64,000 bases of DNA from an uncultured bacterium (GCA_937996685.1 CALKUP010000015.1:71900-135899), one strand, 5' to 3'; positions 9,625-63,180 are shown, numbered from the stretch's first letter. Translations and numbers: made by a program. Notes: generated from the sequence alone by a model not told the origin.

Positions 9625-10710
9625 TCAGTGCGGCAGAGTCGTCTGGAAGGCCCCTGAAACCGTCACAACGCCGGACACGCCCCAGAAGGGCTGGTTCCCG
9701 GTCACAACGCCTCCGGTGCCTTCGACGCCGAACTGGACACCCTCCCACGGCTCAGCCGTGAGGTTTGCCGTTCCGGCCACGCGGTAGAGGTTCGTCGAGT
9801 CACCGGCTGCATCAAGCAGCGTCGGGACGCTGTTGGCGCCGACGAGCTGCTCGCCGCAACCATCAACGCGCAGGGCGCCAGAGAACTTCTTGAAGCCTCG
9901 GACAGGCCCACCCACTCGCGCAGCCAGGAAGCCGCATTCAGTTGCGGACTGTCCGGGGTTGTAGCCGGCGTTCCCCTGCCAACGCAGAGTTGTCGTTGTT
10001 GACACGTACACTTCTCCGGCCGTGTCGGCATCGTAATGCCCGAGAGTTGGGGCAGCCGTCACATGCGCGGCGACCGAGCCCCAGTCACGGGCAATGCGGA
10101 CACCGCCGTACACCGTCGGCTGCTGCTCAGGCGGCTTCAACCGAACCACTCCGTCCCAAGTGCTGGAATACCCCAGAACGAAGGCGTTGCCGGAGCTGTG
10201 CGCGGCGACAAATTCGGCGCCGAAGTTCCAGTACGACCACTCATACGTCGGAGTGGCGTGCATCACGAACCATTGCTGGCTCACGCTGCCCGGCAGAACT
10301 GGCTCGAAGCCGCGCTGGTTGGCAAAGAGGCCGCCTTGAAGGCTGAGCGTCCAAGAGCGAACCGTACCGCCCAACGTCGAGTTGAGCGTCTGGAGCACCG
10401 GCATGCCGTTGGTGGTCTGCCCGAGCCCGCCGAACATGGCGCTCGAATCCACGACGGCGAAGAAGCTGCCATGCTCGACCTTGAGACCGAACTGCGCCCC
10501 TGCTTGCTGCGGACTGAAGTGCCAGGTCTGCGCGGTCGGAACAGCGACGTTCTGCAACGCCGTGGCATCCGAATTTGCCGGCTGAATGACACCCACAATC
10601 CCCTGTCCAACGCCCGCAAGCGTCAGAGTAACGGTCGTCGGTGCCGCATCCTCCGCAGACGCGGTGATGGACAGCGCGGAGAGAGCGAGCGCGATGATGG
10701 AAACGAACAT
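9625..10710 (-). CDS. Secreted hypothetical protein (signal peptide, Gly/Thr/Val-rich); GC-rich gene
   Basis: 361 aa; N-terminal signal-like MFVSIIALALSALSITASA; about 62% GC versus about 40% in the flanks. Confidence 0.5.
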   Translation of the reverse strand: MFVSIIALALSALSITASAEDAAPTTVTLTLAGVGQGIVGVIQPANSDATALQNVAVPTAQTWHFSPQQAGAQFGLKVEHGSFFAVVDSSAMFGGLGQTTNGMPVLQTLNSTLGGTVRSWTLSLQGGLFANQRGFEPVLPGSVSQQWFVMHATPTYEWSYWNFGAEFVAAHSSGNAFVLGYSSTWDGVVRLKPPEQQPTVYGGVRIARDWGSVAAHVTAAPTLGHYDADTAGEVYVSTTTTLRWQGNAGYNPGQSATECGFLAARVGGPVRGFKKFSGALRVDGCGEQLVGANSVPTLLDAAGDSTNLYRVAGTANLTAEPWEGVQFGVEGTGGVVTGNQPFWGVSGVVTVSGAFQTTLPH

Positions 10711-10976
10711 TGAATGCTCCTGCTGAAGTCATGGTGCCGAAAGTGACACACATTACTGCTTCATGTAGCGAATATTCCTTATCACACTTTTTTGCAGAAC
10801 AAAATACCGATACGGTAGATTTGTGTGGAAAAACAATTTTTACTTTCTATAATAGATATACAATATTATAGACAATAGAAATTGTGTGAGCCCGAGGAAC
10901 AATCATGCTGTGTGATGTCGCGGTACGCGAAGCATCGTGATGATTATTCAAAAGACTCACAAGTGAGCTTCTGTTC

Positions 10977-12488
10977 TTACAGAAGCAGCCAGACACACGT
11001 CGTCGACACGATGGCCAGCGGCACGGTAAACGGCAGTGCCATGTAGAGCATCTTCCCGTAACCGAGCTCGATCTTCGCTGCAAGCGGCGAAGTCAGCAGA
11101 AACAGGAAGGCGGCCTGCCCGTTAGGGGTTGCGATCGACAGGATGTTGGTCCCGGCATTGATCGCGATAGCAAGCTTCTCGAACTCGTGGGCTGTGATGA
11201 CACCCGAATCGTACGCTGCCTTGGCCTCGTTGATGAAGACCGTGGCGACGAAGACGTTGTCGCTGATCGAGCTCAGCGCACCTGATGCAGCGAAGAACGT
11301 AAGGAGGATCCCTTGAGCGTTCTGGGCAAGCGCGAACTCAACCACTGGCTGGAAGAGTTGGTTGTGACCAATGACATCCACGATGCCAAAGAACACAACC
11401 AGAAGCGCTACGAACGGCAGCGAAAACGTGAACGCTTGTCCGATGTGGTGCTCGTCGTTGACGCCGTTGAACACCGTCGTCAGCACAATCAGGAACAAGC
11501 CGAGAATGCCAACCTCAGCGATGTGCGTCGCGAGCCCAGTCACGAGCAGTGCAGCGCACACAGCTTGCACGGCAAGCTTGTAGGTCTCGTCGACCGTGCG
11601 GGTAGAAGACTCTTCCTTGGCGTTGGTCTCGAGCAAGGTGCGGATGGCGACGGGCATCTCTGCGCCGTAACCAAACACGCGAAGCTTCTCGACCAGCACC
11701 GACAGGACCATGCCCGCGAAAAGCGTCGGCACGGTGACTGGAGCCATGTGAACCATGAATCCGACGAAGGTCCAATCCTCGGCGAACTCCACAGGGAGCG
11801 CGCTCTCCATGACATGAGCAATCAGCAAGTTCTGTGGCTCACCGACCTTAGTGAGCACACCGCCGAGCATCGTGCCGATAGCTGCTTGCATCGAAAGCGA
11901 CTGCAAGAACGAGCGGAACTGTGCCAGCTCCGCATCGTCGCCGTCTTCCGTGCGACTACGGTAGTCGTTGTACGTCTTGTACAGCGCCAAGAACACTGTG
12001 ATCACAATCGAAATGACCGTGAGTGCATCGAGGTTCGCTGACAGGACGGCGCCGGACATGCAGAACGCGAGGCCGAGGAGTGACTTCGACTTGATCCCCG
12101 TAAGGATCTTACTGAAGACAAACATCAGTAAGTCCTTCAGGAATGCCACACCAGCGACGACGAAAACCAACAAGAGGATGACCGGGAAGTTGTGGTGCGC
12201 CTCCTCATAGAGACCCTCAACCGTGCCCATGCCCAACACCAGCGACTCCATTACGAGGAGTCCGCCGGGCAGAAGCGGGTAGCACTTGAGCGCACCCGCG
12301 AGGAAGACGATGAACTCGGCCATGATGGCCCAGCCGACCGCGAACTTGCTGAATCCGGTAGCGAGAAGCGCCGGATTCAGAACCAAGAACATGATCACCA
12401 TGGCCTTGTACCACTCGGGCGTCGAGACGCCGAGGAACGAACGGAATGCTGCCTGGGACAGCGAATGTGAATGCTGCTGAGTTTCCAT
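10977..12488 (-). CDS. nhaB: Na+/H+ antiporter NhaB; GC-rich gene
   Basis: 503 aa; close similarity to E. coli NhaB over its whole length (KCYPLLPGGLL..., LDALTV...); GC-rich. Confidence 0.8.
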   Translation of the reverse strand: METQQHSHSLSQAAFRSFLGVSTPEWYKAMVIMFLVLNPALLATGFSKFAVGWAIMAEFIVFLAGALKCYPLLPGGLLVMESLVLGMGTVEGLYEEAHHNFPVILLLVFVVAGVAFLKDLLMFVFSKILTGIKSKSLLGLAFCMSGAVLSANLDALTVISIVITVFLALYKTYNDYRSRTEDGDDAELAQFRSFLQSLSMQAAIGTMLGGVLTKVGEPQNLLIAHVMESALPVEFAEDWTFVGFMVHMAPVTVPTLFAGMVLSVLVEKLRVFGYGAEMPVAIRTLLETNAKEESSTRTVDETYKLAVQAVCAALLVTGLATHIAEVGILGLFLIVLTTVFNGVNDEHHIGQAFTFSLPFVALLVVFFGIVDVIGHNQLFQPVVEFALAQNAQGILLTFFAASGALSSISDNVFVATVFINEAKAAYDSGVITAHEFEKLAIAINAGTNILSIATPNGQAAFLFLLTSPLAAKIELGYGKMLYMALPFTVPLAIVSTTCVWLLL

Positions 12489-12624
12489 TGCTTACTCCTC
12501 TGCTCTGTTACGGAATGTGAATGTGCGTCACAATACGCATACGCGTTGTGAAACCGTATAGAATTAGCACAGTCCTTGTGAAAATACAAGCAATAATAAC
12601 GACTGTGTGTATAAGATTATAAAA

Positions 12625-12770
12625 AGAAAAAAGCCCGCATCAGACAAACGTCATAGCGGGCACAAAAGAACAAAGGGATCTGAATGAATCGTTGTCAGAG
12701 ATATGACCGGAGGGTCCCAGGTAGCGGCAGGTCTGCCGCCGCCTACCTGGGGTTGTCTCGCTGTGAGGTC
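12625..12770. repeat. kup 3' trailer module, copy 1 (imperfect 36-nt hairpin plus rho-independent terminator); inverted copy of 25753..25895
   Basis: Near-identical to the reverse complement of 25753..25895 by direct comparison; contains cccaggtagcggcaggtctgccgccgcctacctggg and gcccgc...gcgggc followed by a T-run. Confidence 0.85.
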
Positions 12771-15149
12771 CTAGTGAGCGCTGATCCGGGGGCCAGCAGG
12801 GCCACCCAAGTGGACCGGCAGAGTCTCCTCTTCAATGCCGTCGTGATCCCCGAGGCCGAAGTAGTACTGCGCCGGGAAGGACAGGCGCGACATTGCGCGG
12901 TAAAGCGCGATTCCGATGCTGGAGTACCAGGGAGCGTCGCTGTCAACGATGATGTGGTCGTTGCCAACCACGATCTCACAGCTACCCGGATCAACGCTGA
13001 TCTGTCCGCTCTCCTTGAGCTCGGTCAGAACCTGCATGATGTCCGGCTGCTCAGCCCAGCCAACGCGGTAAATGACCGAGGTCACACCTTCGCTGAAATG
13101 GATGCAAGACACCCGGTTTCCGTTAGCGCGAGGAGTATCAAGCGGCTCCACCGTCAAGAACATAACGCGTTCGGGAACGGAACCGTGCCGACGAACGTAC
13201 TCGCTTGCCTGCAAGGGCAAAGACTGCTGAAGGCCTGTCACGCCAGTTGCTGACAAGAACGCAAACTTCCTCGCGGTCACCGGAAGTGAGCTGCTTGGAT
13301 TTTTCTGCGCATTCACCAGCTCTTCAAGCGTCATCGCACCTTTTTGCGCTTCTTGGATTGCGCTACGGATATGCTCCCTTGCGATCTTCCAGGACATCAT
13401 GACGACGTAGACGCAGAGACCCATTGCAACAGGGATCCAGGCCCCATCCGTGAACTTCAAGGCATTCGCAATGAAGTACGGCCCGTCAATGAAGACGATC
13501 AAGGAACCCCAAACCACACCAGCCTTCAACGCCCCCCACTTCCAGAGGTACCTGGAGATGAAGTACATGCTGACGCTAGTGATCAGCATCACCGTCGTCA
13601 CAGCCATGCCGTACGCTGCTGCGAGCGCGCTCGAAGTCTTGAAGACCAAGACAAGAAGCGCGCACACCGCGTACAGCATCCAGTTGACCGCGGGGATGTA
13701 GATCTGACCCTGATGATGATCCGATGTATGCAAGATCTCGAGCCGAGGCAGCAAGCCGAAGCTAATCGCTGCAACAGTAAGAGAAAAAGCACCGGATATC
13801 AGCGCCTGAGAAGCAATCACCGTCGCAGGTGTCGCCAGGAACACCATCGGCACCCGGAACATCTCCGGAACAATGCTGAAGAAGATGTTGCCCTCAATCG
13901 GGACACCTCCAGTAGCAATGAACGCTGCCTGACCACCGTAGTTCAGGAGCAGCGACGGCCCAACAATGAAGAACCAGCTCTTCTTGATCGCATCCAGACC
14001 GAAGTGTCCCAGGTCTGCGTACATCGCTTCAGTACCGGTCTCGGCGAGCACGGTCGACCCAAGTATTGCCATGTCGTTCAAGGCCAAAGCCATAAACGCC
14101 ATGCCGCCCACTGAACCGGCCAGGATTGGATGGTTGAAGAGGAAATCCAGAGCCGTCAGCGGATTCAGTGCTTGGATCAAGACCCACGGAGCGGCGGCGA
14201 GCGCCATTCCACCGAAAACAGCCAAGGAGATGAACCACGCAAGCATGATCCAACCAAAGATGCCTCCAATGAACTCCGTGCCCCTGCGCTGAATCGAGAA
14301 CAGCGCAGTCAGGATGGCGAGTGCCAGCGGCACGATGAACGAATCCATCGCAGGGTTCACGACCTTGAGACCTTCAAGGGCACTCAAAACCGAAACCGGA
14401 GGAGTCAGGCCGCCCTCACCGAAGAGGAAGGAAGCTGCGATTGGCAGAACCCGCTCAGCAATCAGCACAGAGATCGACGCCATGAAGCCAGCGCCTGCCA
14501 GCTTCTTCGCGTTGATCTCACGCATGAGGCCCATGAGAGCGAAGGTGCCGCCTTCGCTCTTCATGCTCGCACGCAAGACGAAGACCGTGTACTTCACGGA
14601 CACGACGAGCAGCAGGGTCCAGACGATGATCGAGAGAATGCCGAGAGCAGCAGACTGCATCTCCTGAGCCGGAATCACGAACGCCTCTTTGGCCTCCGTA
14701 TTGGTCAGGCAGTCTTCATTTCCTGCGCAGTGATGCTTCCAGGCCATCTCGTGCAGATGATGGAAGGTTTCGTTCATCGCGTAGAGCGGGCTCGTGCCGA
14801 TGTCGCCGTAGACAACACCAAGAGCACCAAGAAGGGCGGCTCCACCAGCAGCGGCATGCACCTCGGGAGAGAGGTGCGGAGTCGTCTGGGTAGTGAAACG
14901 ACCAGTCGCCTTTTGCCACCACGACTTTTCTTCGGGGGGCCAGTAGGTCAGGCTCTGCTCAAGAGCCAAGGGGTTGTCGTCAGTCTTCAAAGCCGAAGCT
15001 TCAACGGTCACGCTGACCGTAGTGGACGTCTGAGCCTCACGAGCATTGCGAGCCTCGATGTCATCCGCCATCTGCGGACCATCTGCATGAGCATCGCCAT
15101 CAGCATCGAGCTGATGACGAAGCCGCGTTTCATCAGGAGGCCTGGTCAT
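12771..15149 (-). CDS. kup: KUP/HAK/KT family potassium transporter (copy 1) with an N-terminal extension of about 95 aa; GC-rich
   Basis: GVVYGDIGTSPLY signature, 12-TM core and C-terminal cytoplasmic domain; start set at the ATG 15149 immediately after the conserved leader (ORF track extends to 15179). Confidence 0.8.
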   Translation of the reverse strand: MTRPPDETRLRHQLDADGDAHADGPQMADDIEARNAREAQTSTTVSVTVEASALKTDDNPLALEQSLTYWPPEEKSWWQKATGRFTTQTTPHLSPEVHAAAGGAALLGALGVVYGDIGTSPLYAMNETFHHLHEMAWKHHCAGNEDCLTNTEAKEAFVIPAQEMQSAALGILSIIVWTLLLVVSVKYTVFVLRASMKSEGGTFALMGLMREINAKKLAGAGFMASISVLIAERVLPIAASFLFGEGGLTPPVSVLSALEGLKVVNPAMDSFIVPLALAILTALFSIQRRGTEFIGGIFGWIMLAWFISLAVFGGMALAAAPWVLIQALNPLTALDFLFNHPILAGSVGGMAFMALALNDMAILGSTVLAETGTEAMYADLGHFGLDAIKKSWFFIVGPSLLLNYGGQAAFIATGGVPIEGNIFFSIVPEMFRVPMVFLATPATVIASQALISGAFSLTVAAISFGLLPRLEILHTSDHHQGQIYIPAVNWMLYAVCALLVLVFKTSSALAAAYGMAVTTVMLITSVSMYFISRYLWKWGALKAGVVWGSLIVFIDGPYFIANALKFTDGAWIPVAMGLCVYVVMMSWKIAREHIRSAIQEAQKGAMTLEELVNAQKNPSSSLPVTARKFAFLSATGVTGLQQSLPLQASEYVRRHGSVPERVMFLTVEPLDTPRANGNRVSCIHFSEGVTSVIYRVGWAEQPDIMQVLTELKESGQISVDPGSCEIVVGNDHIIVDSDAPWYSSIGIALYRAMSRLSFPAQYYFGLGDHDGIEEETLPVHLGGPAGPRISAH

Positions 15150-15395
15150 GGCATTTTCCCAACGAAGGTCGCGTGGCACTTGCCGACGCGAACAAAGACG
15201 ATATGGTCAAACGGCACTCGCCGCTGACAACCATCGCCTACACACAGATTTTCGGTCTGCATGTTCTCCGCCTGGTGCGTTACGCCAGCTAAGGGTCCTT
15301 TTGACGCTTTAAAGTTTTTTGTCGTTTGTTCGACAAACAACGATTCATTCATGTGAATGTGCACGTTGTTCGATCGGCCATGGTAAGGAAGAAAA
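15150..15395 (-). promoter_or_regulatory. Conserved kup leader, copy 1 (block A of about 80 nt, a variable hairpin, block B of about 120 nt, then ATG)
   Basis: Blocks A and B are near-identical (about 90-95%) to 23351..23592 upstream of the second kup, although the two coding sequences are only about 35-40% identical in protein. Confidence 0.6.
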
Positions 15396-15729
15396 AGCTT
15401 CTGCTTCTAATTTCTTTTCACGGCAAATCGAGCAACAAAAATGGACACAGCTCGCCTGCTATTGCGATATCTTTTTTCTCTTGATCTATAGTGAATTACC
15501 TACTGTTTTTCTGCCCTCCTTTATGGAGAGAAGTCGTGCGTCGCTCTATTACAGACCAAGATATACCAACAATGAAATGTTCAGGAATACGAGCGTATTA
15601 TTGCCCTGTTTTCCGGGGCAAATGTAACGCTAAAGCTTTTTTATGTCAATAGTTGATATATCAAACTGTGTATATATCAAAAGAACTCCGATTACTTCGG
15701 AGTTCTTCGAAAAAAATGAATCAACTATT

Positions 15730-18039: not shown

Positions 18040-18371
18040 AGAATGTGTTAGAGTCTGCAGCTTGTGCTTTGAAAAATTTCCTGCACAAAAACAGACGTAT
18101 ATCGAATTAAATTACCCTTGACAATGAATGGATGTACTAGCGACATGTATCATTTTTGTAAAAAAATTCCACATGTCGATAGTCATCTGCGCAAACCTTT
18201 TTGTTCGCACAAACAATCAACAACGTATCATTTTTTTATTACGTTGTCGCAAGTACAGTGCATTGCACACGAGCATAGCACAGACTACTCTTGTTTTTTT
18301 TACGCGTCAAGAAACGAAAAAAAACGGAAGCTAGTCCGTTTTTTTTATTTGTAGAAAAATGCTTGTTTTTA

Positions 18372-22608: not shown

Positions 22609-23016
22609 TTATTCTTCATCCTCAAGTGCCTGATCAACAGGTTTTTCAAAGGTTGATTGATGAAATAGCGTAATAATATGATACAAACGAGCAATTTCTT
22701 GAGATAGTAATACATTTCCAGCAGCAGTCAATTGATAGTAGCGACGATTTTGCTCTTGAAAGGTTGGGTATAAATCTGCATCAGCATCATTTGCCACCTC
22801 TTCAATCACCCCTTCATCCAGCATTTTCTTAATTAGTCCATAAACGCTTCCTGGACCGATTTTAATAAGACCGTCTGTGTCTTTTCGGACACGCTGCATA
22901 ATCCCATATCCATGTTTTTTTCCATCACGCATGGTAAACAAAAAATAAAAGACCAAAGGCGTCAACGGCAACCGAATTTTTTCTATTTTTTGCTTCATGT
23001 ACTGTATTATAGGCAC
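22609..23016 (-). CDS. padR: PadR-family transcriptional regulator
   Basis: 135 aa; winged-helix PadR signature (GYGIMQRV...GPGSVYGLIKKM). Confidence 0.75.
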   Translation of the reverse strand: MPIIQYMKQKIEKIRLPLTPLVFYFLFTMRDGKKHGYGIMQRVRKDTDGLIKIGPGSVYGLIKKMLDEGVIEEVANDADADLYPTFQEQNRRYYQLTAAGNVLLSQEIARLYHIITLFHQSTFEKPVDQALEDEE

Positions 23017-23045: not shown

Positions 23046-23185
23046 AACTTTGATATATATAGTATATCAGAAAAAAAATACATATTTTACTGTAATCGTT
23101 TTATTTCACTTTTTTTATTAAAAACCCTTTGTTTTAGATATATCGATGTTTGATATATATCTATATTTTTTATTGATATACATGT
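23046..23185. promoter_or_regulatory. Cluster of TGATATA-type inverted repeats in the padR/kup intergenic region (candidate PadR operators)
   Basis: TGATATAtatagTATATCA (23048..23066); AGATATAT-N11-ATATATCT (23127..23153); ttgatatacatgtg (23172..23185). Confidence 0.4.
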
Positions 23186-23236: not shown

Positions 23237-23350
23237 TTGCTCGAAATTGAATGGAAAGTTTCCATTATAAGCGTACTTCCTAGAGAAATTGCAATACCAT
23301 TTTGTTGCTCGATTTGCCCTGAAAAGAAAGACGCGTTTTTTACACCTTCT

Positions 23351-23592
23351 CTTCCTTACCATGGCCGATCGAACAACGTGCACATTCACATGAATGAATC
23401 GTTGTTTGTCGAACAAACGACAAAAACCTACAACGCGCAAGAGGCCTTAACCACTATTAGCGCTAGTGGACGGAGAACACACGGACCAAAAATCTGTGCG
23501 TAGGCGATGGTTGTCAGCGGCGGGTGCCGTTTGACCATATCGTCTTTGATCGCGTCGGCAAGTGCCACGTGACCTTCGTTGGGAAAATACAG
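23351..23592 (+). promoter_or_regulatory. Conserved kup leader, copy 2 (blocks A and B)
   Basis: See copy 1; ends immediately at ATG 23593. Confidence 0.6.
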
Positions 23593-25752
23593 ATGGACAG
23601 ACTCAAATCGTGGCTTGGGTGGCTCGCAAAGCTTCCAAGTTCCTGCAAGGTCCTCTTCTTCGCCGTTCTTGCGGCGTTGAAGGTGGCCGCAATCATCCTC
23701 GAGAAGAGGACGAGGTCGCTCGTCATTGCGACCTGGAACGGGCTGATGACCTATGTCTTCTGGTCTGAAGATGCTGCACCTCAGCAGGCAAAAGACGGTC
23801 ACGGCCATCACCCGGAAACGGGGTGGTTCAGCCTTCGCACACTCTGGAATTCGTTGAGCGCACTCGGCATCGTCTACGGCGATATCGGCACGAGCCCGCT
23901 CTACGCTCTGCGAGCCGCACTTGGCTGGTTCAGGGACTCGTCCGGAGTTGTGAGCGGACATCGAGTTCCGATCATCTTGGACAACGTCCTTGGCGTCGTC
24001 TCCTTGATCAACTGGACGCTGCTCATCGTTGTGACCCTGAAGTACGTGGCGTTTGTCCTCCGCGCTGACAATCGCGGCGAGGGCGGCATCATGTCGCTGA
24101 TGGTTCTCGTGACCAGCACCTTGAAACGGCGCGGCTACATGCTCGCGATGACCGGAGCAACGCTCGCTGGCGTCTTCGGCTCGGCCCTGATCTACGGCGA
24201 CGGTGTTCTGACTCCCGCAGTCAGCGTCCTCGCCGCTGTTGAGGGCCTTGGAACAGCCTACCCAATCCTCAGCTTCGTGGTGGTTCCGCTGGCCTGCCTG
24301 ATCCTGATCGGGCTGTTCAGTGTTCAGTCGAAGGGCACCGGCAAAGTCGGCAAGATCTTCGGGCCGATCATGCTGCTCTGGTTCCTCTTCCTTGGGGGTG
24401 AAGGGCTCTATAACATTCTGGTCTACAAGCCGGAGATGTTGTATGCCCTGAGCCCGGTGTACGCGATCAAGTTCCTGATCGCAAACCCGCTCCTCGGAAG
24501 CTCGGTCATGGGCGGTGTGTTCCTGGTGGCAACCGGTGGCGAAGCACTCTACGCCGACATGGGCCACTTCGGCCCCAAGGCTATCAGGATCGCATGGATG
24601 TTCGTCGTCGCCCCAAGTCTGATGCTTCAGTACATGGGACAAGGCGCGATCGTTCTCGTGAACCCAGAAGCGAAGTTCGACCCGTTCTTCGCCGCTGTTC
24701 ATCTCGAGGGAGAAGCGCTCGCGGTGTTCGTCATCTTCCCGACGATCGCGACGATCATCGCGTCTCAGGCTCTGATCTCCGGTGTGTTCTCGCTGACGGC
24801 GCAGGCAATCCAGCTTGGTCTGCTTCCGCGCATGCCGGTGTATCACACCGACGCGAACGAGCGTGGCCAGATCTATGTCCCGGTGATCAACTGGGTTGTC
24901 TGCCTGATGGTCATACTGACCGTCATTGGTTTCGGCAGCTCGGGTGCACTTGAGTCGGCCTACGGCATCGCCGTCTCTCTGTGCATGCTCTTCACGACGG
25001 GCCTGATGATGTTCGCCAGCTTCTACCTCTGGCACTGGCGTGCTTGGGTGGTTGCGGCAGTCTGGGGTCCAATCCTCATCCTCGAAACGTTCTTCGTCTA
25101 CGCAAACGGCCAGAAGATCGCTCACGGCGGGTGGTATCCGTTGCTCATGGGCGCCGTGCTCTTCACGATCATGACCACCTTCAAGAGGGGTCAGGAGATC
25201 AAGGGCTGGTACATGAGCCGGATGTCTTTGCCGGTTGAGCGCTACCTTGCTGCAGCTCAGGACGCGTTCGTCAACCCAAAAACAGCCATCGCCTTGACAG
25301 CCGCTGCGGACCGCGTTCCGTTGGCGCTGCGGGCGATCCTTCTCGCCCAAAACGTCCGCTACGCACAAACCGTTCTTGCGACGGTCGTCACGGCTGACGA
25401 ACCGTACTGGACCGGAGATCGCGTCACTTGGCGCGACCTCGGCAACGGCATGTGGGAGGCGATCATCCATTACGGCTTCATGGAACAGAGCGCGATCAAT
25501 GTCCCTCTTGCACTGGCGCAGAGCCATGTGCCTGAAGGGGTCGACATCGATGGCATCTACATCCTGGGCCGTGATGCGGTAGTCCCTCATCAGGACGTTG
25601 GCGCGCCTGTTGAAGACGATCAGCCTGCTCCGATGGCCTATTGGCGCGAGAAGCTCTTTGAGCTGATGATCGCCAACGCGCAAAACGCGGTCACCTGGTT
25701 CAAGGTGCCGCCTGGACGCTTCCACCAGATCGGCATTTCGGTTGTGATCTAA
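23593..25752 (+). CDS. kup: KUP/HAK/KT family potassium transporter (copy 2); GC-rich
   Basis: GIVYGDIGTSPLY signature; 719 aa from the ATG that follows the conserved leader (ORF track begins at 23524 inside the leader). Confidence 0.8.
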   Translation: MDRLKSWLGWLAKLPSSCKVLFFAVLAALKVAAIILEKRTRSLVIATWNGLMTYVFWSEDAAPQQAKDGHGHHPETGWFSLRTLWNSLSALGIVYGDIGTSPLYALRAALGWFRDSSGVVSGHRVPIILDNVLGVVSLINWTLLIVVTLKYVAFVLRADNRGEGGIMSLMVLVTSTLKRRGYMLAMTGATLAGVFGSALIYGDGVLTPAVSVLAAVEGLGTAYPILSFVVVPLACLILIGLFSVQSKGTGKVGKIFGPIMLLWFLFLGGEGLYNILVYKPEMLYALSPVYAIKFLIANPLLGSSVMGGVFLVATGGEALYADMGHFGPKAIRIAWMFVVAPSLMLQYMGQGAIVLVNPEAKFDPFFAAVHLEGEALAVFVIFPTIATIIASQALISGVFSLTAQAIQLGLLPRMPVYHTDANERGQIYVPVINWVVCLMVILTVIGFGSSGALESAYGIAVSLCMLFTTGLMMFASFYLWHWRAWVVAAVWGPILILETFFVYANGQKIAHGGWYPLLMGAVLFTIMTTFKRGQEIKGWYMSRMSLPVERYLAAAQDAFVNPKTAIALTAAADRVPLALRAILLAQNVRYAQTVLATVVTADEPYWTGDRVTWRDLGNGMWEAIIHYGFMEQSAINVPLALAQSHVPEGVDIDGIYILGRDAVVPHQDVGAPVEDDQPAPMAYWREKLFELMIANAQNAVTWFKVPPGRFHQIGISVVI

Positions 25753-25895
25753 ACAGCGAGACAATCCCAGGTAGGCGGCGGCAGACCTGCCGCTACCTGG
25801 GACCCTCCGGTCATATCTCTGACAACGATTCATTCAGATCCCTTTGTTCTTTTGTGCCCGCTATGACGTTTGTCTGATGCGGGCTTTTTTCTTAT
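25753..25895. repeat. kup 3' trailer module, copy 2 (hairpin plus terminator)
   Basis: Near-identical to the reverse complement of 12625..12770. Confidence 0.85.
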
Positions 25896-25974
25896 AAAAT
25901 TCCCACTCTTTTTACCTGAACACACAGCAAAAATCAGATTGACAGAAGGGCTATCTCTTTGTATTCTGAGGGCA

Positions 25975-27867: not shown

Positions 27868-28425
27868 TTAGTCTGCTTTTTCGCGACGGAAGTGAACCAC
27901 ATCACCCGAACCACGATAACCACTCGTCTCCACCTCAGGCAGAAGGAGGCAACGAAGAACATGACAAGGGCGCTCAGTGAAGTACGCCATAGCCTTCAGC
28001 ACCGAGCTCGCATCAATTTCCACTACCTCACTCGACTCAAGTCCTCCGATGATTTGATCCAGTGCAGCGCAGACAATTGCGATATCGCACTCACAGAAAT
28101 TGACGAAGCCAAGCAGGGCGATCTTGTGAGCATCTCCCGTCACCCGCTTGGCCACGTGCGGGTACCGCGCAAGAGCCGCACCCACCAAAGGAAGCGTGGA
28201 TGCAAGCTCCTGATACAACTCAATCTGACGCTGGATCGTTTCAGCATTTTCCTGAGGAACCCTTACGCGTAGATCAGGCTCAGTCTTGACGATCTCCTGC
28301 GCCATTTGCAGCTCCTGGAGGGAGTTGAGACCGATGATCCACTTAAAGTAGTCCCAGCCTCGCTCAATCTCATTCTCCTCAGCAAGCACCGCCTGAAGCA
28401 CTTCGATCATTTCAGCCTTGTTCAT
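27868..28425 (-). CDS. Hypothetical protein; GC-rich gene adjacent to the tRNA-Val fragment and gene
   Basis: 185 aa; no recognisable motifs; local GC about 57%. Confidence 0.4.
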   Translation of the reverse strand: MNKAEMIEVLQAVLAEENEIERGWDYFKWIIGLNSLQELQMAQEIVKTEPDLRVRVPQENAETIQRQIELYQELASTLPLVGAALARYPHVAKRVTGDAHKIALLGFVNFCECDIAIVCAALDQIIGGLESSEVVEIDASSVLKAMAYFTERPCHVLRCLLLPEVETSGYRGSGDVVHFRREKAD

Positions 28426-28613
28426 TGCGAACTCCTTCTACATGCTACATGAGGTAGCTTTTGGGTTTGCTCAATTTCACAGACCGCTCAATAAAAAGGT
28501 GCTACATACCGAATTTGAGTGCACATCCTCCTCTCTCAAATTACGCCTCTATAGGATCATGTTACCCCTCTTTTGTCAATACAAAAAAGACCCTACGGGT
28601 CTCCTTTGTTTTT

Positions 28614-28630
28614 GTGGGCGCTGAGGGGCT
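28614..28630 (-). repeat. 17-bp copy of the tRNA-Val 3' end (att-like remnant) preceded by a terminator-like hairpin
   Basis: gtgggcgctgaggggct is identical to 28812..28828 inside tRNA-Val; both copies are preceded by a hairpin plus cctttNtttt. Confidence 0.6.
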
Positions 28631-28809
28631 TTCGCCTCGCTCGCTCACGCTCACTTCGTTGTCCTGGGCAGCGCCAATTTGCCACTGGCAAATCGTCGGC
28701 ATTCACTGCGTCGCGCTCTCGCTTCGCTCGTTGCGCTCCTGGTTCATTTCTGCCCGTTCTCGCCCGTGCAAACCAAAAGAAAAACAGCCCTGAAGGGCTG
28801 CCTTTCTTT

Positions 28810-28886
28810 TGGTGGGCGCTGAGGGGCTCGAACCCCCGACCCCCTCGGTGTAAACGAGGTGCTCTAGCCAACTGAGCTAAGCGCCC
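28810..28886 (-). tRNA. tRNA-Val (anticodon TAC), CCA encoded
   Basis: Manual cloverleaf: GGGCGCT/AGCGCCC acceptor stem, anticodon loop TTTACAC, T-loop TTCGAGC. Confidence 0.8.
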
Positions 28887-30121: not shown

Positions 30122-30131
30122 AACCATTTTA

Positions 30132-30157
30132 AAATCCCCTTTTACGGGGATTTTTTG
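30132..30157. terminator. Bidirectional terminator hairpin aaaatccccttttacggggatttttt (copy 1 of a duplicated hairpin)
   Basis: Perfect 5-bp GC stem with flanking A-run and T-run; near-identical copy at 31358..31382. Confidence 0.7.
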
Positions 30158-30158
30158 T

Positions 30159-31205
30159 TTACCGTCCAAGCGCTTGGTGGAGTCGCTGAATTTTTTCTGC
30201 GCTCCTTGCTCGTACTTTTTCTTCTGCTCGAACACTGATAACCAAATCTTGAACCATCTGTGCAGTATCCATTACTGCGCTGCTTTTGTAACGCGCCGGA
30301 AACTCTTGCAACCACCGCTGACCATCAGGATCAGTTTGCATCCGGGCGATTGCCTGATTTTGTAACAGTGTCGTGCGAATGTGATCTTCACTCATCTCAG
30401 GAGAGAGTTGTGCAAATACCTGTTCAAATTGTGGCACAAACTTTTTCAATGCATTTTCATATTCACTTTGAATCATCTGCTCAACAAATGCGATATCATC
30501 ATCTGAAATATGCTTTTTTAAATATGTAATATCTGTCAGATCATAAGAGCGGCCAGTTTCAATTTTGTGATACACAATGAGCGCCGGATGTGAGATCGGA
30601 ATTTCACCTCCGCTGCGAGTGCGGTAGAATTCAACCGGCTGCATAAATTTTTTTGGAATTGTCGCGCCTGTGTAACGTGTAACAGTATCCCCATTAGAAT
30701 TACGATGTGAGATATGCAAATCTACAAAGTCGAGAGTGTCCCCTACCTCGATTGAATGATTGACCCCCACCTTTGCGATTTGTATATCATCAAGGTCTTC
30801 ACGCAAAATATCAACAGCGCTTATAGACTCAACCCACCGTTGTCCATCTGCGTCTTTTTCGGCTCGATGTTTTGTAAATTGATACCCATGTTTTTGCAAA
30901 TACGCCTCCACTTTTTCAAGCTCATCATCGAACACACCAATATCGACATCTTTATGGTTACGAACAAAACGCCTTTCGAGTAATGAAATATTGGTTCCAC
31001 CATCAAGTTGCCAGGCAAAATCGGCATCCTTCATCAAATCAGCCAATGCGTCAAGTCGCGCTTCCATAAAATCCACTTGTTCAGGAGTCGGCGGTGTGTA
31101 CTGACCAGCTTCTGCTATTTGAGGTTCTAGAAAAGTCTGAAAATCAGGCACAAATTGGCCCTGTTTTGGCTGAGTATTCTCTAGCATAACCTCTCGATTT
31201 ATCAT
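30159..31205 (-). CDS. Nucleotidyltransferase, ANT(2'')/LinA-like domain, with an uncharacterised C-terminal half
   Basis: 348 aa; LDGGTNISLLERRFVRNHKDVDIGVF matches the G[GS]...D.D NTase motif of lincosamide and aminoglycoside 2''-nucleotidyltransferases; C-terminal 170 aa have no match. Confidence 0.55.
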   Translation of the reverse strand: MINREVMLENTQPKQGQFVPDFQTFLEPQIAEAGQYTPPTPEQVDFMEARLDALADLMKDADFAWQLDGGTNISLLERRFVRNHKDVDIGVFDDELEKVEAYLQKHGYQFTKHRAEKDADGQRWVESISAVDILREDLDDIQIAKVGVNHSIEVGDTLDFVDLHISHRNSNGDTVTRYTGATIPKKFMQPVEFYRTRSGGEIPISHPALIVYHKIETGRSYDLTDITYLKKHISDDDIAFVEQMIQSEYENALKKFVPQFEQVFAQLSPEMSEDHIRTTLLQNQAIARMQTDPDGQRWLQEFPARYKSSAVMDTAQMVQDLVISVRAEEKVRARSAEKIQRLHQALGR

Positions 31206-31357
31206 ACGATTTTATGCTATCACCTAATGAGTCGTACCTGCAAATTGTCGATTATATCAAAGAGTTCAGGGTATAGGAATTTTTGTATTTCTTTTAAGAA
31301 GCATACTAGTATTCACCCACAAACAAGAACACGCCTCTTTAAGAAATCTTTCAATTC

Positions 31358-42861: not shown

Positions 42862-43554
42862 TTATGAAAGAGTGATTGTGAAAGAAAGTGTATATGCACC
42901 ACTTGGTTGGGATGGTGGTAATACTTGTGATAAACCAACCCCTGTTAAATCCCATGTACAATAGGTTGTTGCAGAGGATCCACCGGTGAGCAGTGTAATA
43001 CTACTGACTGCTGCGGCAACTTCACGGAATGAGGATGAAGAGCCGAGTGTTAAGTCTGTAATTGGACATGCGGTATTATCTGGAGAACCTGCGCGGGTTC
43101 CGGACGCTGGATTGACGGTTAAACGACCACCTTTTGAGTCAGAATCGGCATCATCTGTGCCATCTGTATTACTATCATTGAAATCGTATGTGTGTGAACC
43201 ATCACTCCACGTCGCTGTTGAACCACCAGTTGCGGCAATCGCAATCGTCCATGTTGCATCAGATGTCGGATTATACACACGAATACGCTGTGATGATGTA
43301 CCGAGTGTCCCTGTTACTGTTTGTGAACTGGTTGAAAATGTCGCACTGGAGAATGTGACACTTGGACTCCCAACAGTTGTTCCACCAGCATCAACAATAT
43401 CGACTGATTGCGAACCATCACTGATCGTTTGTGAAAACGACGAAGCAACACCGAACACGGTTTGATATAAACCGACGGATGCAACCGCAGCGAGGACAAT
43501 ACCAACGATGATTGTTAGCATTGATGACCGAATTGCCTGAAAAACAGCAGTCAT
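42862..43554 (-). CDS. WxL-like domain surface protein (short paralog)
   Basis: 230 aa; N-terminal TM or signal; C-terminus paralogous to 39965..41533. Confidence 0.45.
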   Translation of the reverse strand: MTAVFQAIRSSMLTIIVGIVLAAVASVGLYQTVFGVASSFSQTISDGSQSVDIVDAGGTTVGSPSVTFSSATFSTSSQTVTGTLGTSSQRIRVYNPTSDATWTIAIAATGGSTATWSDGSHTYDFNDSNTDGTDDADSDSKGGRLTVNPASGTRAGSPDNTACPITDLTLGSSSSFREVAAAVSSITLLTGGSSATTYCTWDLTGVGLSQVLPPSQPSGAYTLSFTITLS

Positions 43555-53269: not shown

Positions 53270-53275
53270 ATGTAT

Positions 53276-53352
53276 TGGTACTCCCTCCTGGACTTGAACC
53301 AGGGACCGCCGAGATATAAGCTCGGTGCTCTAACCACCTGAGCTAAGGGAGC
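53276..53352 (-). tRNA. tRNA-Ile-like with anticodon TAT (UAU), CCA encoded
   Basis: Manual fold; the body closely resembles bacterial tRNA-Ile2 (ileX) but the anticodon loop is CTTATAT rather than CTCATAA. Confidence 0.65.
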
Positions 53353-53507
53353 GCAGGATTCGTCACTCTTTTGTAACTGATTTTTGGACATCTTGCAATC
53401 TAATTCGCTAGAAAGAAGTATTTCTTTCCACTGAACTAGGGACGTCGATGTACATTTGCGGGAGATGACAACGACGTCGGAGAGAAACGACTTGAGCGGG
53501 GCAGTAC

Positions 53508-53855
53508 CTAGAAGGAGGAAGGTCCCTGTAGTGCAATTCCGACAAGCAGGGGGAGTAGCGCCAGGAAGATCAAGGTGGCCAGAATGATCACGAACCAGTT
53601 GATTTCCGGGTGTGATTCCCGCGAGAGATCCTCCCAACCCTCACTGACAAGCCTGGGAGCGATCTTGTGCCGCCAAACAAGTTCAGCCGCCAGGTCAACC
53701 ATCACCGTGACCCGTAGGTCCGAGACGGCCTCGCCCCATCCTTCAGTAGTCATGCCGGTGTGCCTGCTAATTGCCTCATCGACAATTCGCTTGGCTTCTT
53801 CAACAGTCTGCACGCGCTGCGGTGCGCGCAAGATCACGCTTTTGTATCTTCTCAA
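53508..53855 (-). CDS. Hypothetical small protein with a C-terminal TM helix; GC-rich gene
   Basis: 115 aa; about 58% GC, embedded between two tRNA genes. Confidence 0.35.
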   Translation of the reverse strand: MRRYKSVILRAPQRVQTVEEAKRIVDEAISRHTGMTTEGWGEAVSDLRVTVMVDLAAELVWRHKIAPRLVSEGWEDLSRESHPEINWFVIILATLIFLALLPLLVGIALQGPSSF

Positions 53856-53986
53856 AGCACCTCCTTTTCAGCACTGTACTGTGCCAAAATGTGCGGCGAC
53901 TGTAGCAGAGAGAAGTAAAAAATGCAATACCATGCATTGACAGTCCTTGTAAAAATTCATAGACTACGTGAGCTCACAGAATTCTG

Positions 53987-54063
53987 TGGGCGATTAGCTC
54001 AGTTGGCTAGAGCGCTTGCTCGACATGCAAGAGGTCACTGGTTCGAGCCCAGTATCGCCCACC
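53987..54063 (+). tRNA. tRNA-Val (anticodon GAC), CCA encoded; anticodon loop TCGACAT has C at position 33
   Basis: Manual cloverleaf, GGGCGAT acceptor stem. Confidence 0.7.
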
Positions 54064-54098
54064 AAAAAAGCTGCGTTTTCCACGCAGCTTTTGTTTTA
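54064..54098 (+). terminator. Rho-independent terminator after tRNA-Val
   Basis: aagctgcgttttccacgcagctt followed by ttgtttt. Confidence 0.6.
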
Positions 54099-60879: not shown

Positions 60880-60915
60880 AAAACAGCCAGCGCCATGCTG
60901 GTTGTTTTTTTATTG
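60880..60915 (+). terminator. Rho-independent terminator after the S1 gene
   Basis: acagccagcgccatgctggttgt followed by ttttttt. Confidence 0.6.
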
Positions 60916-60941
60916 GCCTCGTACCATGTGAGACAGCATAT

Positions 60942-61033
60942 AATAAGACAAAACCCGAAACACCGCGACAACAATCTTCATGGAAGATGTTGTGTTGGTG
61001 CTCCGGGGAGCCGAGCGACGAGACGGAGTCGAC
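60942..61033 (-). repeat. Cassette 3' module, copy A (about 90-nt imperfect hairpin plus GAGTCGACTC palindrome)
   Basis: About 90% identical to 62642..62748; lies directly downstream of the stop codon of gene 61034..61441. Confidence 0.8.
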
Positions 61034-61441
61034 TCAGGCCTTTGGAACGCGGCGGTAGTCTTTGAATGTAGGGTGTTGCAGCACACCAACATTCGTATCC
61101 ACCAGATGCCTCCTTTCTTCAATTTCCCCCGCTTCGACGAGGCCGTTAAGCCAGTCAAGCAGACTGGAGTCAAAGCCGGGATACACCCACTCGCCCTCAG
61201 GCGCGTCGGCGAACATTTGCGCAAAGTGCGCTTTTTTAGCCAAGCGCTCTTTCTCCTGGTCTTCCGGGGTCACAGTCCTCACAGACAGAACGGTACCGCC
61301 AGGGTAGGTCTGCTTGTAACCTCCTGGGATCAACTCCAAAATTCCGTCATCCTGAGGCACGCGTTTTTTCGATTTTTTACGGAAAGAAGACCGCAAGAGG
61401 AGCAAGAGACACAGGACAGACAGACCGATGAAAAACCACAT
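61034..61441 (-). CDS. Small GC-rich membrane-anchored hypothetical protein (cassette gene A)
   Basis: About 135 aa from MWFFIGLSV; N-terminal TM; the upstream part of the track ORF (61442..61573) is the shared 5' module and is probably non-coding. Confidence 0.45.
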   Translation of the reverse strand: MWFFIGLSVLCLLLLLRSSFRKKSKKRVPQDDGILELIPGGYKQTYPGGTVLSVRTVTPEDQEKERLAKKAHFAQMFADAPEGEWVYPGFDSSLLDWLNGLVEAGEIEERRHLVDTNVGVLQHPTFKDYRRVPKA

Positions 61442-61447
61442 GAGGCC

Positions 61448-61557
61448 TCCGGTTTGACCTAGACGGTCAAGGTTGCAACGAACATCAACTCTTTTTGCAG
61501 CACCATGCCGCGGAAAAGCTGACGCTCGATCATACTGATTTCTATTACATCCGTCAA
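61448..61557 (-). promoter_or_regulatory. Cassette 5' module, copy A: sigma70-like promoter (TTGACG, 17 nt, TATGAT) plus a conserved 5'UTR of about 75 nt
   Basis: Near-identical to 63080..63165; the -10 element lies inside the conserved block and the -35 just outside it. Confidence 0.55.
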
Positions 61558-61649
61558 GAGAACGCATTAACACATAGGGTTGACTTTCGGTTTTTATTCG
61601 GTTATTATTTTTATACCTTTATACGAATACAAAAAAACAATTATTTACT

Positions 61650-62636
61650 ATGAAAAAGAAGCCTGTATCTCAAACACTCATTTATCAAACAAAATCCGGA
61701 GCCTTGGAACTGCGAGGCGATTATTCGCGTGAAACCATTTGGGCAACACGCACACAAATGGCCGAGATATTCAATGTGAATCCACCGGCGATTTCAAAGC
61801 ATATTCAAAATATCTATAAAGAAGACGAACTAAAGCGAAAAGCAACTAGTTCCAAAATGGAACTAGTTCAAGACGAAGGGGGCCGCCAAATTAAACGTAC
61901 AGTTGATATTTATAATCTCGATGTCATTATAGCCGTTGGCTATCGAATTAATTCGGTAGTTGGCACTCAATTCCGACAATGGGCGACCAAAACTCTCCGC
62001 TCACACATTGTCGATGGCTACACCATCAACAAAAAACGAATCAAATACAACCTTGATTCATTTTTACAATCAGTCGATGACATTCGCGCGCTATTGCCTA
62101 ACGAACAAGCTATTGATCCAAAAAATGTACTGGATTTAGTGAAAGAGTTTGCAACCACCTGGATGTCACTGGATGCGTATGATAAAGACACCTTACAAAT
62201 CAGTGGAACAACGAAAAAATCAGTCGAACTCAATGGAGAAGAATTACTCAGCGCCATTCAAACATTACGGGCAGAACTCATCAAAAAACGTGAGGCAACG
62301 GACATTTTTGCGCAAGAACGCACAATAAAAAGCGTTGAAGGGATTATCGGAAACGTCATGCAATCATTTAGTGGTAAACCTGTCTATCCAACAATTGAAG
62401 AAAAGGCCGCTCATTTACTCTATTTTATGGTGAAAAATCATCCATTTGTTGATGGAAATAAGAGATCCGGGGCATTTGCCTTTGTATGGTTTTTACGAAA
62501 AACGCCGATTGCAGGCGCTCAAAACATGAACCCTGCAGCCCTCACTGCCCTCACACTGCTTATCGCTGAAAGCAATCCGACCAAAAAAGACCAAATGATT
62601 GCCTTAGTGACAACGCTATTGCGCGGGCAGAAATAA
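61650..62636 (+). CDS. Fic/Doc-family protein with an N-terminal RhuM-like DNA-binding domain
   Basis: 328 aa; Fic motif HPFVDGNKRSGA; N-terminal RhuM/KilA-N-like region. Confidence 0.7.
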   Translation: MKKKPVSQTLIYQTKSGALELRGDYSRETIWATRTQMAEIFNVNPPAISKHIQNIYKEDELKRKATSSKMELVQDEGGRQIKRTVDIYNLDVIIAVGYRINSVVGTQFRQWATKTLRSHIVDGYTINKKRIKYNLDSFLQSVDDIRALLPNEQAIDPKNVLDLVKEFATTWMSLDAYDKDTLQISGTTKKSVELNGEELLSAIQTLRAELIKKREATDIFAQERTIKSVEGIIGNVMQSFSGKPVYPTIEEKAAHLLYFMVKNHPFVDGNKRSGAFAFVWFLRKTPIAGAQNMNPAALTALTLLIAESNPTKKDQMIALVTTLLRGQK

Positions 62637-62641
62637 ACTAT

Positions 62642-62756
62642 AACAGTACTCTAATAAAACAAAACCCCGAAACACCGCGACAACAATCTTCATGGAAGAC
62701 GTTGTGTTGGTGTCCGAGGGAGCCGAGCGACGAGACGGAATCGACTTAGCGTTCAG
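62642..62756 (-). repeat. Cassette 3' module, copy B
   Basis: See copy A. Confidence 0.8.
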
Positions 62757-63062
62757 CTACTGCCCTTGCTCGAGGGCAGCAATTTGAGCCTCGACCTCAG
62801 GAGTGCAGGGGACATTGGCCATAACGAACCCGTCATGACCAAGGCTATCGTGCTTGAAAAAGCACAGATTTGTTCTGAAGTCCCGGATGTAATACCCTTC
62901 GAGAACCTCTTCTTGAGAGTCTGCCAAGCGAGAATCTTCTTCGGGCCAGAACAACATAAAGAGGATCGAAAAAATCAAGAAGGCGCAGAAGATCAACGAG
63001 AACAGAGCCTCCGCATTCTTGTCGAGGAAACCCTTAAACCAAGACCGCAGATTTGCGAACAT
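62757..63062 (-). CDS. Small GC-rich membrane-anchored hypothetical protein (cassette gene B)
   Basis: 101 aa; N-terminal TM helix; unrelated in sequence to gene A. Confidence 0.45.
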   Translation of the reverse strand: MFANLRSWFKGFLDKNAEALFSLIFCAFLIFSILFMLFWPEEDSRLADSQEEVLEGYYIRDFRTNLCFFKHDSLGHDGFVMANVPCTPEVEAQIAALEQGQ

Positions 63063-63079
63063 GGGACACCTCTGGTAAT

Positions 63080-63180
63080 CGACCTAAACGGCCGAGGTTG
63101 CAACGAACATCAACTCTTTTTGCAGCACCATGCCGCGGAAAAGCTGACGCTCGATCATACTGACTACACCCAAAAAAGTC
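63080..63180 (-). promoter_or_regulatory. Cassette 5' module, copy B: promoter (TTGACT, 16 nt, TATGAT) plus conserved 5'UTR
   Basis: See copy A. Confidence 0.55.

Follow-up and report, generated by a model that had tools for sequence, protein, structure and literature searches.

The 64,000-nt stretch of DNA analysed here (GCA_937996685.1, CALKUP010000015.1:71900-135899; hereafter the window) stems from an uncultured bacterium and combines a backbone of low GC content with nine GC-rich open reading frames (ORFs), including those for the Na+/H+ antiporter NhaB and the two K+ uptake transporters Kup1 and Kup2. We favour the view, with a probability of roughly 0.55, that each of the nine GC-rich segments is a transcription unit of one gene, acquired horizontally and reminiscent of a phage moron, and that these units were inserted and shuffled by recombination at their regulatory flanks. 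Its direct observational basis is the foreign composition of the segments, their absence or replacement in related genomes, the near-identity of scaffolds that surround different ORFs and break off at the ORF ends, and the duplication of terminators. The units would be drawn from a shared pool of GC-rich genes that lacks close sampling in public data, and recombination at regulatory DNA, rather than a co-encoded recombinase, would have put them in place, stacked them and exchanged them. DNA uptake would be the route of entry, as we infer; bacteria of the candidate phyla radiation (CPR), to which the host belongs, commonly encode DNA-uptake machinery.

A GC profile of the window in 400-nt steps places the backbone at about 0.38-0.48 and reveals high-GC blocks (0.54-0.65) at 9.6-15.2 kb and 23.6-25.7 kb, along with lesser bumps at 28.0, 32.4-33.2, 53.6, 60.8-61.6 and 62.4-63.2 kb. 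A preliminary description of this DNA had put all nine ORFs at about 57-62% GC. All nine are indeed outliers, but only four of them lie at 57-64% (the ORF at 9625-10710, 0.64; nhaB, 0.58; kup1, 0.58; kup2, 0.59), with the remaining five at 0.49-0.56. Its assertion that the genes are compositionally foreign was borne out by a per-gene analysis of codon usage and of the GC content at third codon positions (GC3), with 44 backbone genes as the reference (GC3 mean 0.384, standard deviation 0.057). GC3 amounts to 0.59-0.77 in all nine ORFs (z = 3.6-6.9), and the log-likelihood of their synonymous codons under the backbone model again makes each of them an outlier (z = -2.5 to -5.6). Codon usage falls into two classes, one of which is common to the GC-rich cargo: relative synonymous codon usage is correlated among the large GC-rich genes, including one GC-rich gene of a related genome (r = 0.67-0.83), and among backbone genes (0.69-0.89), as opposed to r = -0.24 to 0.12 between GC-rich and backbone genes. 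In most inserts, a change-point fit positions the edges of the GC-rich segment 10-90 nt from the ORF ends. For kup1 and kup2, the GC-rich part reaches 133-149 nt upstream (proximal leader, GC 0.56-0.57) and runs about 60 nt downstream (hairpin, GC 0.69), and in the pair at 61-63 kb it takes in the conserved flank modules (GC 0.50-0.52). The intergenic DNA, previously described as host-like, deserves this label in the spacers between modules but not in the GC-rich conserved flanks of the kup genes (leader and trailer) and of the 61-63 kb pair.

The genes are, moreover, accessory, being absent or replaced in a relative of 81% nucleotide identity. This finding makes it very improbable that the genes are native and that selection or biased gene conversion drove up their GC content in situ. 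Their isolation in sequence resembles that of typical lineage-specific CPR genes, and the leader and operator motif described below suggest wiring into host regulation, as this scenario would have it. However, the native membrane transporters (TrkH, CitMHS and a permease) have an ordinary GC3 of 0.36-0.43, and we know of no process that lifts GC3 from 0.38 to 0.76 inside single ORFs.

The backbone encodes a V/A-type ATPase operon, the ribosomal proteins L19 and S1, FtsH, Ddl, RluD, glycosyltransferases and many proteins without an assigned family. S1 is 88% identical to its counterpart in the closest sequenced relative, GCA_964492735.1 (contig CAZBLE010000002.1; L005, L007, L008), and shares 70-73% identity with proteins annotated as Candidatus Kerfeldbacteria or Patescibacteria; judging by this protein and by a backbone with V/A-type ATPase, Ddl and FtsH, the host is a Kerfeldbacteria-like CPR (Patescibacteria) bacterium. 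The relative itself is titled 'uncultured Gammaproteobacteria bacterium'; its S1 and gene content point to Kerfeldbacteria-like Patescibacteria, and the title looks wrong. Its contig is 81% identical to positions 1-9479 of the window, where the similarity ends, and in comparison to this genome the inserts are absent or replaced at four syntenic sites. The relative shows the order L19, tRNA-Leu, tRNA-Val, cupin, TrkH, a shikimate-kinase-like (SK-like) gene, TrkH#1, leader, TrkH#2, IF-2B, CitMHS and V-ATPase. In the window, L19, tRNA-Leu and tRNA-Val are followed by an attachment-site (att)-like repeat, a GC-rich 185-aa ORF, a permease, kup2, PadR and two CBS genes, and then by CitMHS, TrkH#1, TrkH, the SK-like gene, the leader, kup1, nhaB, the secreted-protein gene and V-ATPase.

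The gap between the S1 gene and a Lactamase_B_3 gene is likewise occupied by GC-rich ORFs in relatives recovered from other samples (L008/L009, L010, L019). The phenomenon is clade-wide: four or more related genomes, obtained from different samples, contain envelope and ion-transport genes of foreign composition as single-gene units, positioned at recurring intergenic hot spots. Because GC-rich ORFs occupy the same slots in genomes from other samples, it appears unlikely that the mosaic reflects assembly chimerism, i.e. the mis-joining of GC-rich fragments of other community members into a CPR contig. The source is a metagenome assembly and the GC shifts are abrupt, which is compatible with such an artefact. 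However, every insert has backbone collinear with the relative on both sides, and the native leader continues straight into GC-rich ORFs. In addition, an independent Logan assembly (L009) agrees with the NCBI metagenome-assembled genome, a separate 2.4-kb Logan contig contains kup2 with 69 nt of the leader fused in frame, and the copies of the duplicated flanks differ by 3-9% and are hence not collapsed repeats. Taken together, these points leave chimerism only a slim chance.

Conserved or duplicated flanking modules, already mentioned in the preliminary description, are present in two pairs, the first of which comprises the kup genes. While Kup1 and Kup2 share only 35% protein identity, the approximately 290 nt upstream of their genes are 93-97% identical up to the ATG, and the 150 nt downstream are 97% identical, with the homology beginning 0 nt (kup2) or 6 nt (kup1) past the stop codon. 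The proximal leader (about 130-150 nt) and the trailer hairpin group with the ORFs in composition (GC 0.56-0.69). The distal leader (about 180 nt), in turn, recurs in the relative with 73-81% identity over the aligning stretches, folds as a multi-stem structure with few compensatory changes between the two genomes and has diverged versions preceding native trkH genes. In the relative, the leader ends at a Shine-Dalgarno (SD) sequence, GGAGAA, and the ATG of trkH#2; the same ATG opens a 38-codon frame in kup1. The trkH#2 gene that immediately follows the shared leader is again GC-rich (GC 0.567, GC3 0.72, as compared to about 40% GC for the genome) and has a GC hairpin and a terminator behind it. 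The native structured leader, ending in SD and ATG, may therefore represent an expression slot for K+ transporters that came to hold a GC-rich trkH in the relative and kup1 and kup2 in the window. Consensus matches to TTGACA promoters lie upstream of kup1, kup2 and the 185-aa ORF, and a stem with a T-run is predicted as terminator behind each of the three.

A pattern search for the leader identified, of the GTDB species genomes, only that of the relative and had no match in JGI metagenomes. The structured element is located upstream of kup1, kup2 and trkH (15299-15480, minus strand; 23283-23459, plus strand; L005 842-1010), with diverged copies at 18213-18247 (minus strand) and, in L007, upstream of 3728 and 6251. 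It has a hairpin core of the form ACAACG...CGTTGT followed by TTGT and no match in Rfam, and we consider it a candidate for a new cis-regulatory RNA acting in K+ transport. We also noticed that the kup trailers (12682-12699 and 25818-25835) are perfectly complementary over 14-15 nt to the leader core (GAATGAATCGTTGT) at 15333-15350 and 23392-23409; given this complementarity, the 5' and 3' untranslated regions (UTRs) of one and the same kup mRNA could pair; alternatively, the trailer may have originated from part of the leader in inverted orientation. The palindrome-containing motif TTGATATAT[AC] has five copies in the window, compared to 0.14 expected by chance, and all of them are confined to the two kup promoter regions (15653-15680 and 23050-23159), adjoining the gene of a PadR-family regulator (22609-23016). 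This motif is likely an operator, and its restriction to both kup promoter regions suggests that the two cassettes are wired into the same regulation.

The second pair consists of modules A and B at 61-63 kb, whose proteins are unrelated, although their 3' flanks (D1) are 91% and their 5' UTRs (D2) 96% identical and their stop codons align at the first position of flank homology. Consensus matches to promoters of the type TTGAC[GT]-17-TATGAT are found at 61557-61529 and 63182-63154. As the D1/D2 flanks are absent from the relative's slot, they travel with the modules. Two pairs of modules with near-identical non-coding 5' and 3' scaffolds around different ORFs are what recombination through shared flanks would be expected to produce. 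The contents of the S1-to-Lactamase_B_3 gap, in which the pair resides, differ across five genomes and are GC-rich in four of them (Table 1). One of these genomes, L010, contains two more GC-rich islands besides that in the gap; the gene calls in its islands look wrong-strand, so that only their composition and an opposite-strand CDP-OH_P_transf match were used.

The notion that each insert is essentially one ORF long holds in the sense that the units are single transcription units, but not with respect to the relative, compared to which two regions each form one contiguous block. The block at 9480-15440 stacks three modules (secreted protein, nhaB and kup1), and that at 60911-63232 comprises two GC-rich ORFs and a RhuM/Fic gene of native composition.

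Duplicated terminators provide a further signature and bracket three places, 32242-33258, 30161-31354 and 28631-28780. At the first, the 35-nt direct repeats correspond to the terminator of the gene at 31452-32186 and a decayed copy of it. At the second, two copies of a terminator hairpin (30129-30160 and 31355-31386; 32 nt, 84% identical) enclose a nucleotidyltransferase gene of native composition (30159-31205), and there is no gene for the second copy to terminate, an indication that insertion with terminator duplication also moves genes of host-like composition. At the third, the repeat unit of 48 nt joins a terminator to the 16-nt 3' end of tRNA-Val (AGCCCCTCAGCGCCCA), one copy of which lies at 28615-28630. 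Duplications of this kind around three small inserts could arise if a circular intermediate integrated via a short shared sequence.

The tRNA-Val repeat further indicates that, despite the lack of an integrase gene, classical site-specific integration has also taken place at this tRNA gene, leaving an att-like scar. Two inserts adjoin tRNA genes, as had been pointed out before. The second of them separates the divergent tRNA-Ile and tRNA-Val promoters, extending a gap of 6 nt in the relative to 538 nt in the window. The tRNA-Ile/tRNA-Val pair (window 53274-54064; L008 5665-5922) is inverted as a unit relative to the flanking genes, and tRNA-Val with 37 nt of upstream sequence is 99% identical between the window and L008. 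The scar, the GC-rich remnant within it and the proximity of two inserts to tRNA genes would fit a scenario in which integrase-mediated islands or islets lost their integrase and were trimmed to single genes, with the shared flanks emerging later by intragenomic duplication or gene conversion; the kup cassettes, as inverted repeats 8 kb apart, have a geometry that favours conversion. We regard this scenario as possible but doubtful, since most inserts lie away from tRNA 3' ends, the tRNA-Val repeats bound only a 150-nt remnant and leave the 185-aa GC-rich gene outside, conversion requires flanks that are already homologous around unrelated ORFs, and no integrase remnant was detected in the window.

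With regard to the cargo, each of the nine GC-rich ORFs carries at least one signal-peptide-like or transmembrane (TM)-like hydrophobic segment, which argues for an enrichment of envelope and transport proteins. NhaB, Kup1 and Kup2 match their Pfam family profiles over the full length, with scores that exceed the curated cut-off, whereas the six non-transporter ORFs have no Pfam or PHROG family. The secreted protein, one of these, has a single distant homologue (32% identity) among 1.84 billion representatives; a PDB sequence search with it returned nothing significant, and its single-sequence structure prediction (mean predicted local distance difference test score, 30) is unusable. For NhaB, the best non-self identity is 63-65%, on contigs of 52-57% GC (58% for proteins labelled Planctomycetes). 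For Kup2, it is at most 46-47%, with names including Gemmatimonadaceae, Vicinamibacterales and Polyangiaceae, and the best relatives of Kup1, from JGI metagenomes, reach 36-40% on contigs of 63-72% GC. By these identities, the homologues of the cargo come from GC-rich organisms, none of which is close enough to be the donor. The high-GC donor lineage envisaged earlier, such as Actinobacteria or Proteobacteria, consequently did not emerge from the searches (best values, 64% for NhaB, 46% for Kup2 and 36-40% for Kup1). A donor-like linkage of nhaB and kup was looked for and not found: next to the closest NhaB homologue (L001) lies a 742-aa protein other than a Kup. A literature search on horizontal gene transfer and GC content in Kerfeldbacteria and on CPR Kup proteins found nothing relevant.

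Pfam scans of about 55 ORFs of the window, which represents 64 kb of a 168-kb contig, revealed no integrase, transposase or recombinase domain, in agreement with the earlier statement that these 64 kb lack a recombinase. A phage origin was dismissed as well, because six window ORFs and four ORFs of relatives have no PHROG match and the backbone is a housekeeping chromosome; neither the D2 flank nor the leader nor the secreted protein found a match in scans of viral contigs. Nor do the small GC-rich segments read as non-coding RNAs: Rfam scans of 27.6-33.4, 53-63.4, 23.0-23.7 and 9.15-9.66 kb, with gathering and E-value thresholds, produced only tRNAs and chance matches to microRNAs and small nucleolar RNAs.

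Single-gene acquisition, as originally proposed, is well matched by these units, which have their own predicted promoter, SD sequence and terminator and are absent or replaced in the relative. The proposal of one common mechanism, by contrast, is not borne out by the data, given that the junctions show at least three signatures, namely duplicated terminators, the att-like tRNA repeat and shared UTR scaffolds. Among known systems, the morons of lambdoid phages are single extra genes of atypical composition that lie between conserved phage genes and have their own promoter and terminator. The units described here are alike in that they contain one ORF each with its own predicted sigma-70-like promoter and intrinsic terminator, differ from their neighbours in composition, lack an associated recombinase and lie between genes that are adjacent, or separated by other contents, in related genomes. 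They are unlike morons in residing in a cellular chromosome among genes for ribosomal proteins, tRNAs, FtsH and an ATPase, without phage genes or PHROG matches, and in the reuse of near-identical UTR scaffolds by some of them. A second parallel is provided by the promoter-early stem-loop (PeSL) cassettes of T4-type phages, whose recombination leads to the insertion, deletion or replacement of single ORFs and the formation of mini-circles (Arbiol et al., 2010, PMC2839356), in a modular shuffling of regulatory cassettes (PMC4122927). Here, too, regulatory sequences (terminator hairpins, promoters and UTRs) flank single, mostly orphan ORFs, close relatives differ by insertion, deletion and replacement at regulatory sites, and direct repeats of terminators bracket single-gene inserts as the integration of mini-circles would leave them. 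In contrast to PeSL, however, there is no common motif genome-wide or in relatives, the flanks are particular to each pair, the modules reside in a bacterium rather than a phage and the cargo is compositionally foreign.

The units also share with integron cassettes their ORF-length mobility, mixed origin and composition, small amount of non-coding DNA and flanks that are specific to the host array. An actual integron cassette array was rejected, as the scanned ORFs include no IntI integrase and there is no attI or attC-like shared site; inspection and pairwise BLAST of the module flanks, with no attC-specific tool, revealed no attC or GTTRRRY-type core at the junctions. Hairpins follow several ORFs, but their sequence is shared only within the two module pairs. 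Further differences from integron cassettes are that the modules have their own promoters and are scattered over 54 kb on both strands instead of forming a tandem array of uniform orientation. The leader slot that holds trkH, kup1 or kup2 and the variable S1-to-Lactamase_B_3 gap are also reminiscent of replacement-type flexible genomic islands, although what is replaced are single genes rather than multi-gene clusters and the conserved flanks are non-coding UTRs rather than flanking genes. A tRNA-targeted integrative island, finally, differs in that the repeats here bound a mere remnant, with no integrase beside the tRNA.

Several points weigh against moron-like units shuffled through their flanks. 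The cargo has only 32-64% identity to anything in 5.8 billion proteins, which fits poorly with a very recent transfer from a sampled lineage, and a GC3 of 0.69-0.77 means almost no amelioration despite such distant homologues. In two module pairs independently, the breakpoints coincide exactly with start and stop codons, which exceeds the precision of ordinary homologous or illegitimate recombination; a pre-existing pool of cassettes with the same flanks would explain this precision but shifts the question one step back. Furthermore, the conserved flanks of the two pairs are unlike each other and the modules of the relatives share no flank motifs, which argues against any single PeSL- or attC-like recombination motif. 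A trans-acting recombinase may also be encoded beyond the 64 kb of the window on the 168-kb contig.

The start/stop precision and the unameliorated pool without close relatives would allow for a dedicated mechanism of cassette exchange that relies on a trans-acting enzyme. It is tempting to speculate, although we rate this rather improbable, that this CPR clade has an integrase-independent or trans-encoded system that swaps ORFs from a dedicated GC-rich accessory pool, with ORF precision, into reusable scaffolds. The riboswitch-like K+ leader with the hairpin/terminator trailer and the D2/D1 flanks may be examples of such scaffolds, and the system as a whole would be the chromosomal counterpart of integrons or of PeSL shuffling. 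In its integron-like form, a recombinase acting in trans would move ORF-length cassettes by recognising sites at the leader/ORF and ORF/trailer junctions. The presence of three different GC-rich K+ transporters in the same slot across two genomes, the common codon-usage class of all cargo and the recurrence of the S1 hot spot in four genomes favour this idea, as do the breakpoints at ATG and stop codons. It nevertheless remains a long shot, considering that no recombinase was found among the ORFs scanned, that no core sequence is common to the 5' and 3' junctions or to the two pairs, that the modules occur scattered, in both orientations and with their own promoters, and that those of the relatives lack conserved flanks.

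Table 1. Positions of the GC-rich units, their flanking elements and the contents of the variable gap in five genomes (window coordinates).
Feature	Position	Strand	Remarks
3' flank of secreted-protein module	9480-9624	-	GC 0.455; left block edge; synteny with the relative's V-ATPase promoter region stops at 9479
GC-rich orphan gene (secreted protein), 361 aa	9625-10710	-	N-terminal signal-peptide-like segment; GC3 0.76; no Pfam or PHROG match
AT-rich spacer between secreted-protein and nhaB modules	10711-10976		GC 0.38
nhaB, Na+/H+ antiporter, GC-rich	10977-12488	-	Pfam NhaB, E = 1e-161, 539 bits, full-length; GC3 0.77
kup1 trailer	12615-12770	-	GC hairpin and intrinsic terminator; homologous to kup2 trailer
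kup1, K+ uptake transporter, 792 aa, GC-rich	12771-15149	-	Pfam K_trans, 457 bits, full-length; GC3 0.69
kup1 proximal leader	15146-15262	-	Readable as 38-codon upstream ORF; GC 0.57; starts at the slot's native ATG position; TGA overlaps kup1 ATG
Native distal leader, structured RNA	15299-15480	-	Common to the relative's trkH#2 leader
kup2 leader	23283-23592	+	Distal native and proximal GC-rich part; homologous to kup1 leader up to ATG
kup2, K+ uptake transporter, 719 aa, GC-rich	23593-25752	+	Pfam K_trans, E = 8e-160, 533 bits, full-length, and K_trans_C domain; GC3 0.76
kup2 trailer	25753-25902	+	Hairpin and terminator; homology to kup1 trailer from directly after TAA stop
GC-rich 185-aa ORF	27868-28425	-	Own predicted promoter and terminator; sits where the relative has a cupin gene
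att-like scar	28583-28828	-	Two copies of 16-nt tRNA-Val 3' end plus terminator; bracket 150-nt remnant 28631-28780, GC 0.59
1.05-kb module	32207-33293	-	GC-rich ORF 32334-33170, N-terminal TM segment; bracketed by 35-nt direct repeats
538-nt insert between divergent tRNA-Ile/tRNA-Val promoters	53402-53938	-	GC-rich ORF 53508-53855; SD and TTG start; C-terminal TM segment
Module A	60933-61560	-	3' flank D1, ORF 61034-61441 (135 aa, N-terminal TM segment), 5' UTR D2; promoter TTGACG-17-TATGAT
RhuM/Fic-DOC family gene	61650-62636	+	Native composition; separates modules A and B; missing in the relative's slot
Module B	62645-63185	-	D1/D2 flanks around ORF 62757-63062 (101 aa, TM segment); flanks 91-96% identical to module A
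S1-to-Lactamase_B_3 gap, window			Module A, RhuM/Fic gene, module B
S1-to-Lactamase_B_3 gap, L008			Different 151-aa ORF, GC 0.555
S1-to-Lactamase_B_3 gap, L010			Island, GC 0.64-0.73
S1-to-Lactamase_B_3 gap, L019			84-aa ORF, GC 0.573
S1-to-Lactamase_B_3 gap, L017 (38% GC genome)			307-aa ORF, native composition

Some further features of the backbone deserve mention. About 150 nt upstream of the V/A-ATPase operon (9330-9480, minus strand; L005 5076-5225), behind a TTGACA promoter of their own, are approximately 95% identical in their core between the two genomes, as against 81% for coding DNA; they form a long multi-stem fold without a match in Rfam. Two tRNAs identified by ARAGORN suggest unusual decoding, a tRNA-Ser (35509-35598, plus strand) with the anticodon ACT (A at position 34), a long variable arm and an encoded CCA, and a tRNA-Ile (53276-53352, minus strand) with the anticodon TAT. 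The genes at 39965-41533 and 42862-43554 (both on the minus strand), whose function is unknown, have an unusually high second-position GC content of 0.60 and share three collinear segments with 80-86% identity at a constant offset of 2.9 kb, so that they are probably partial paralogues.

CPR bacteria, with their tiny genomes, are believed to rely on partner organisms, and little is understood of how they acquire new functions. The inserts of the window are surrounded by genes with roles in ion homeostasis, including those for the V-ATPase, two native TrkH proteins, CitMHS, two CBS proteins, PadR and an amino-acid permease, and the presence of NhaB and two Kup proteins (TrkH in the relative) beside a V/A-type ATPase points to an adaptation of Na+/K+ homeostasis through horizontal transfer. 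While moron-like modules derived from horizontal transfer are known in kind, the distinctive aspect here is the reuse of scaffolds within a CPR chromosome, with at least one native regulatory leader being reused for different incoming K+ transporters. If this reuse reflects a real mechanism of exchange, foreign ORFs would be plugged directly into host regulation without a linked recombinase, a process that may also bear on the origin of gene cassettes.

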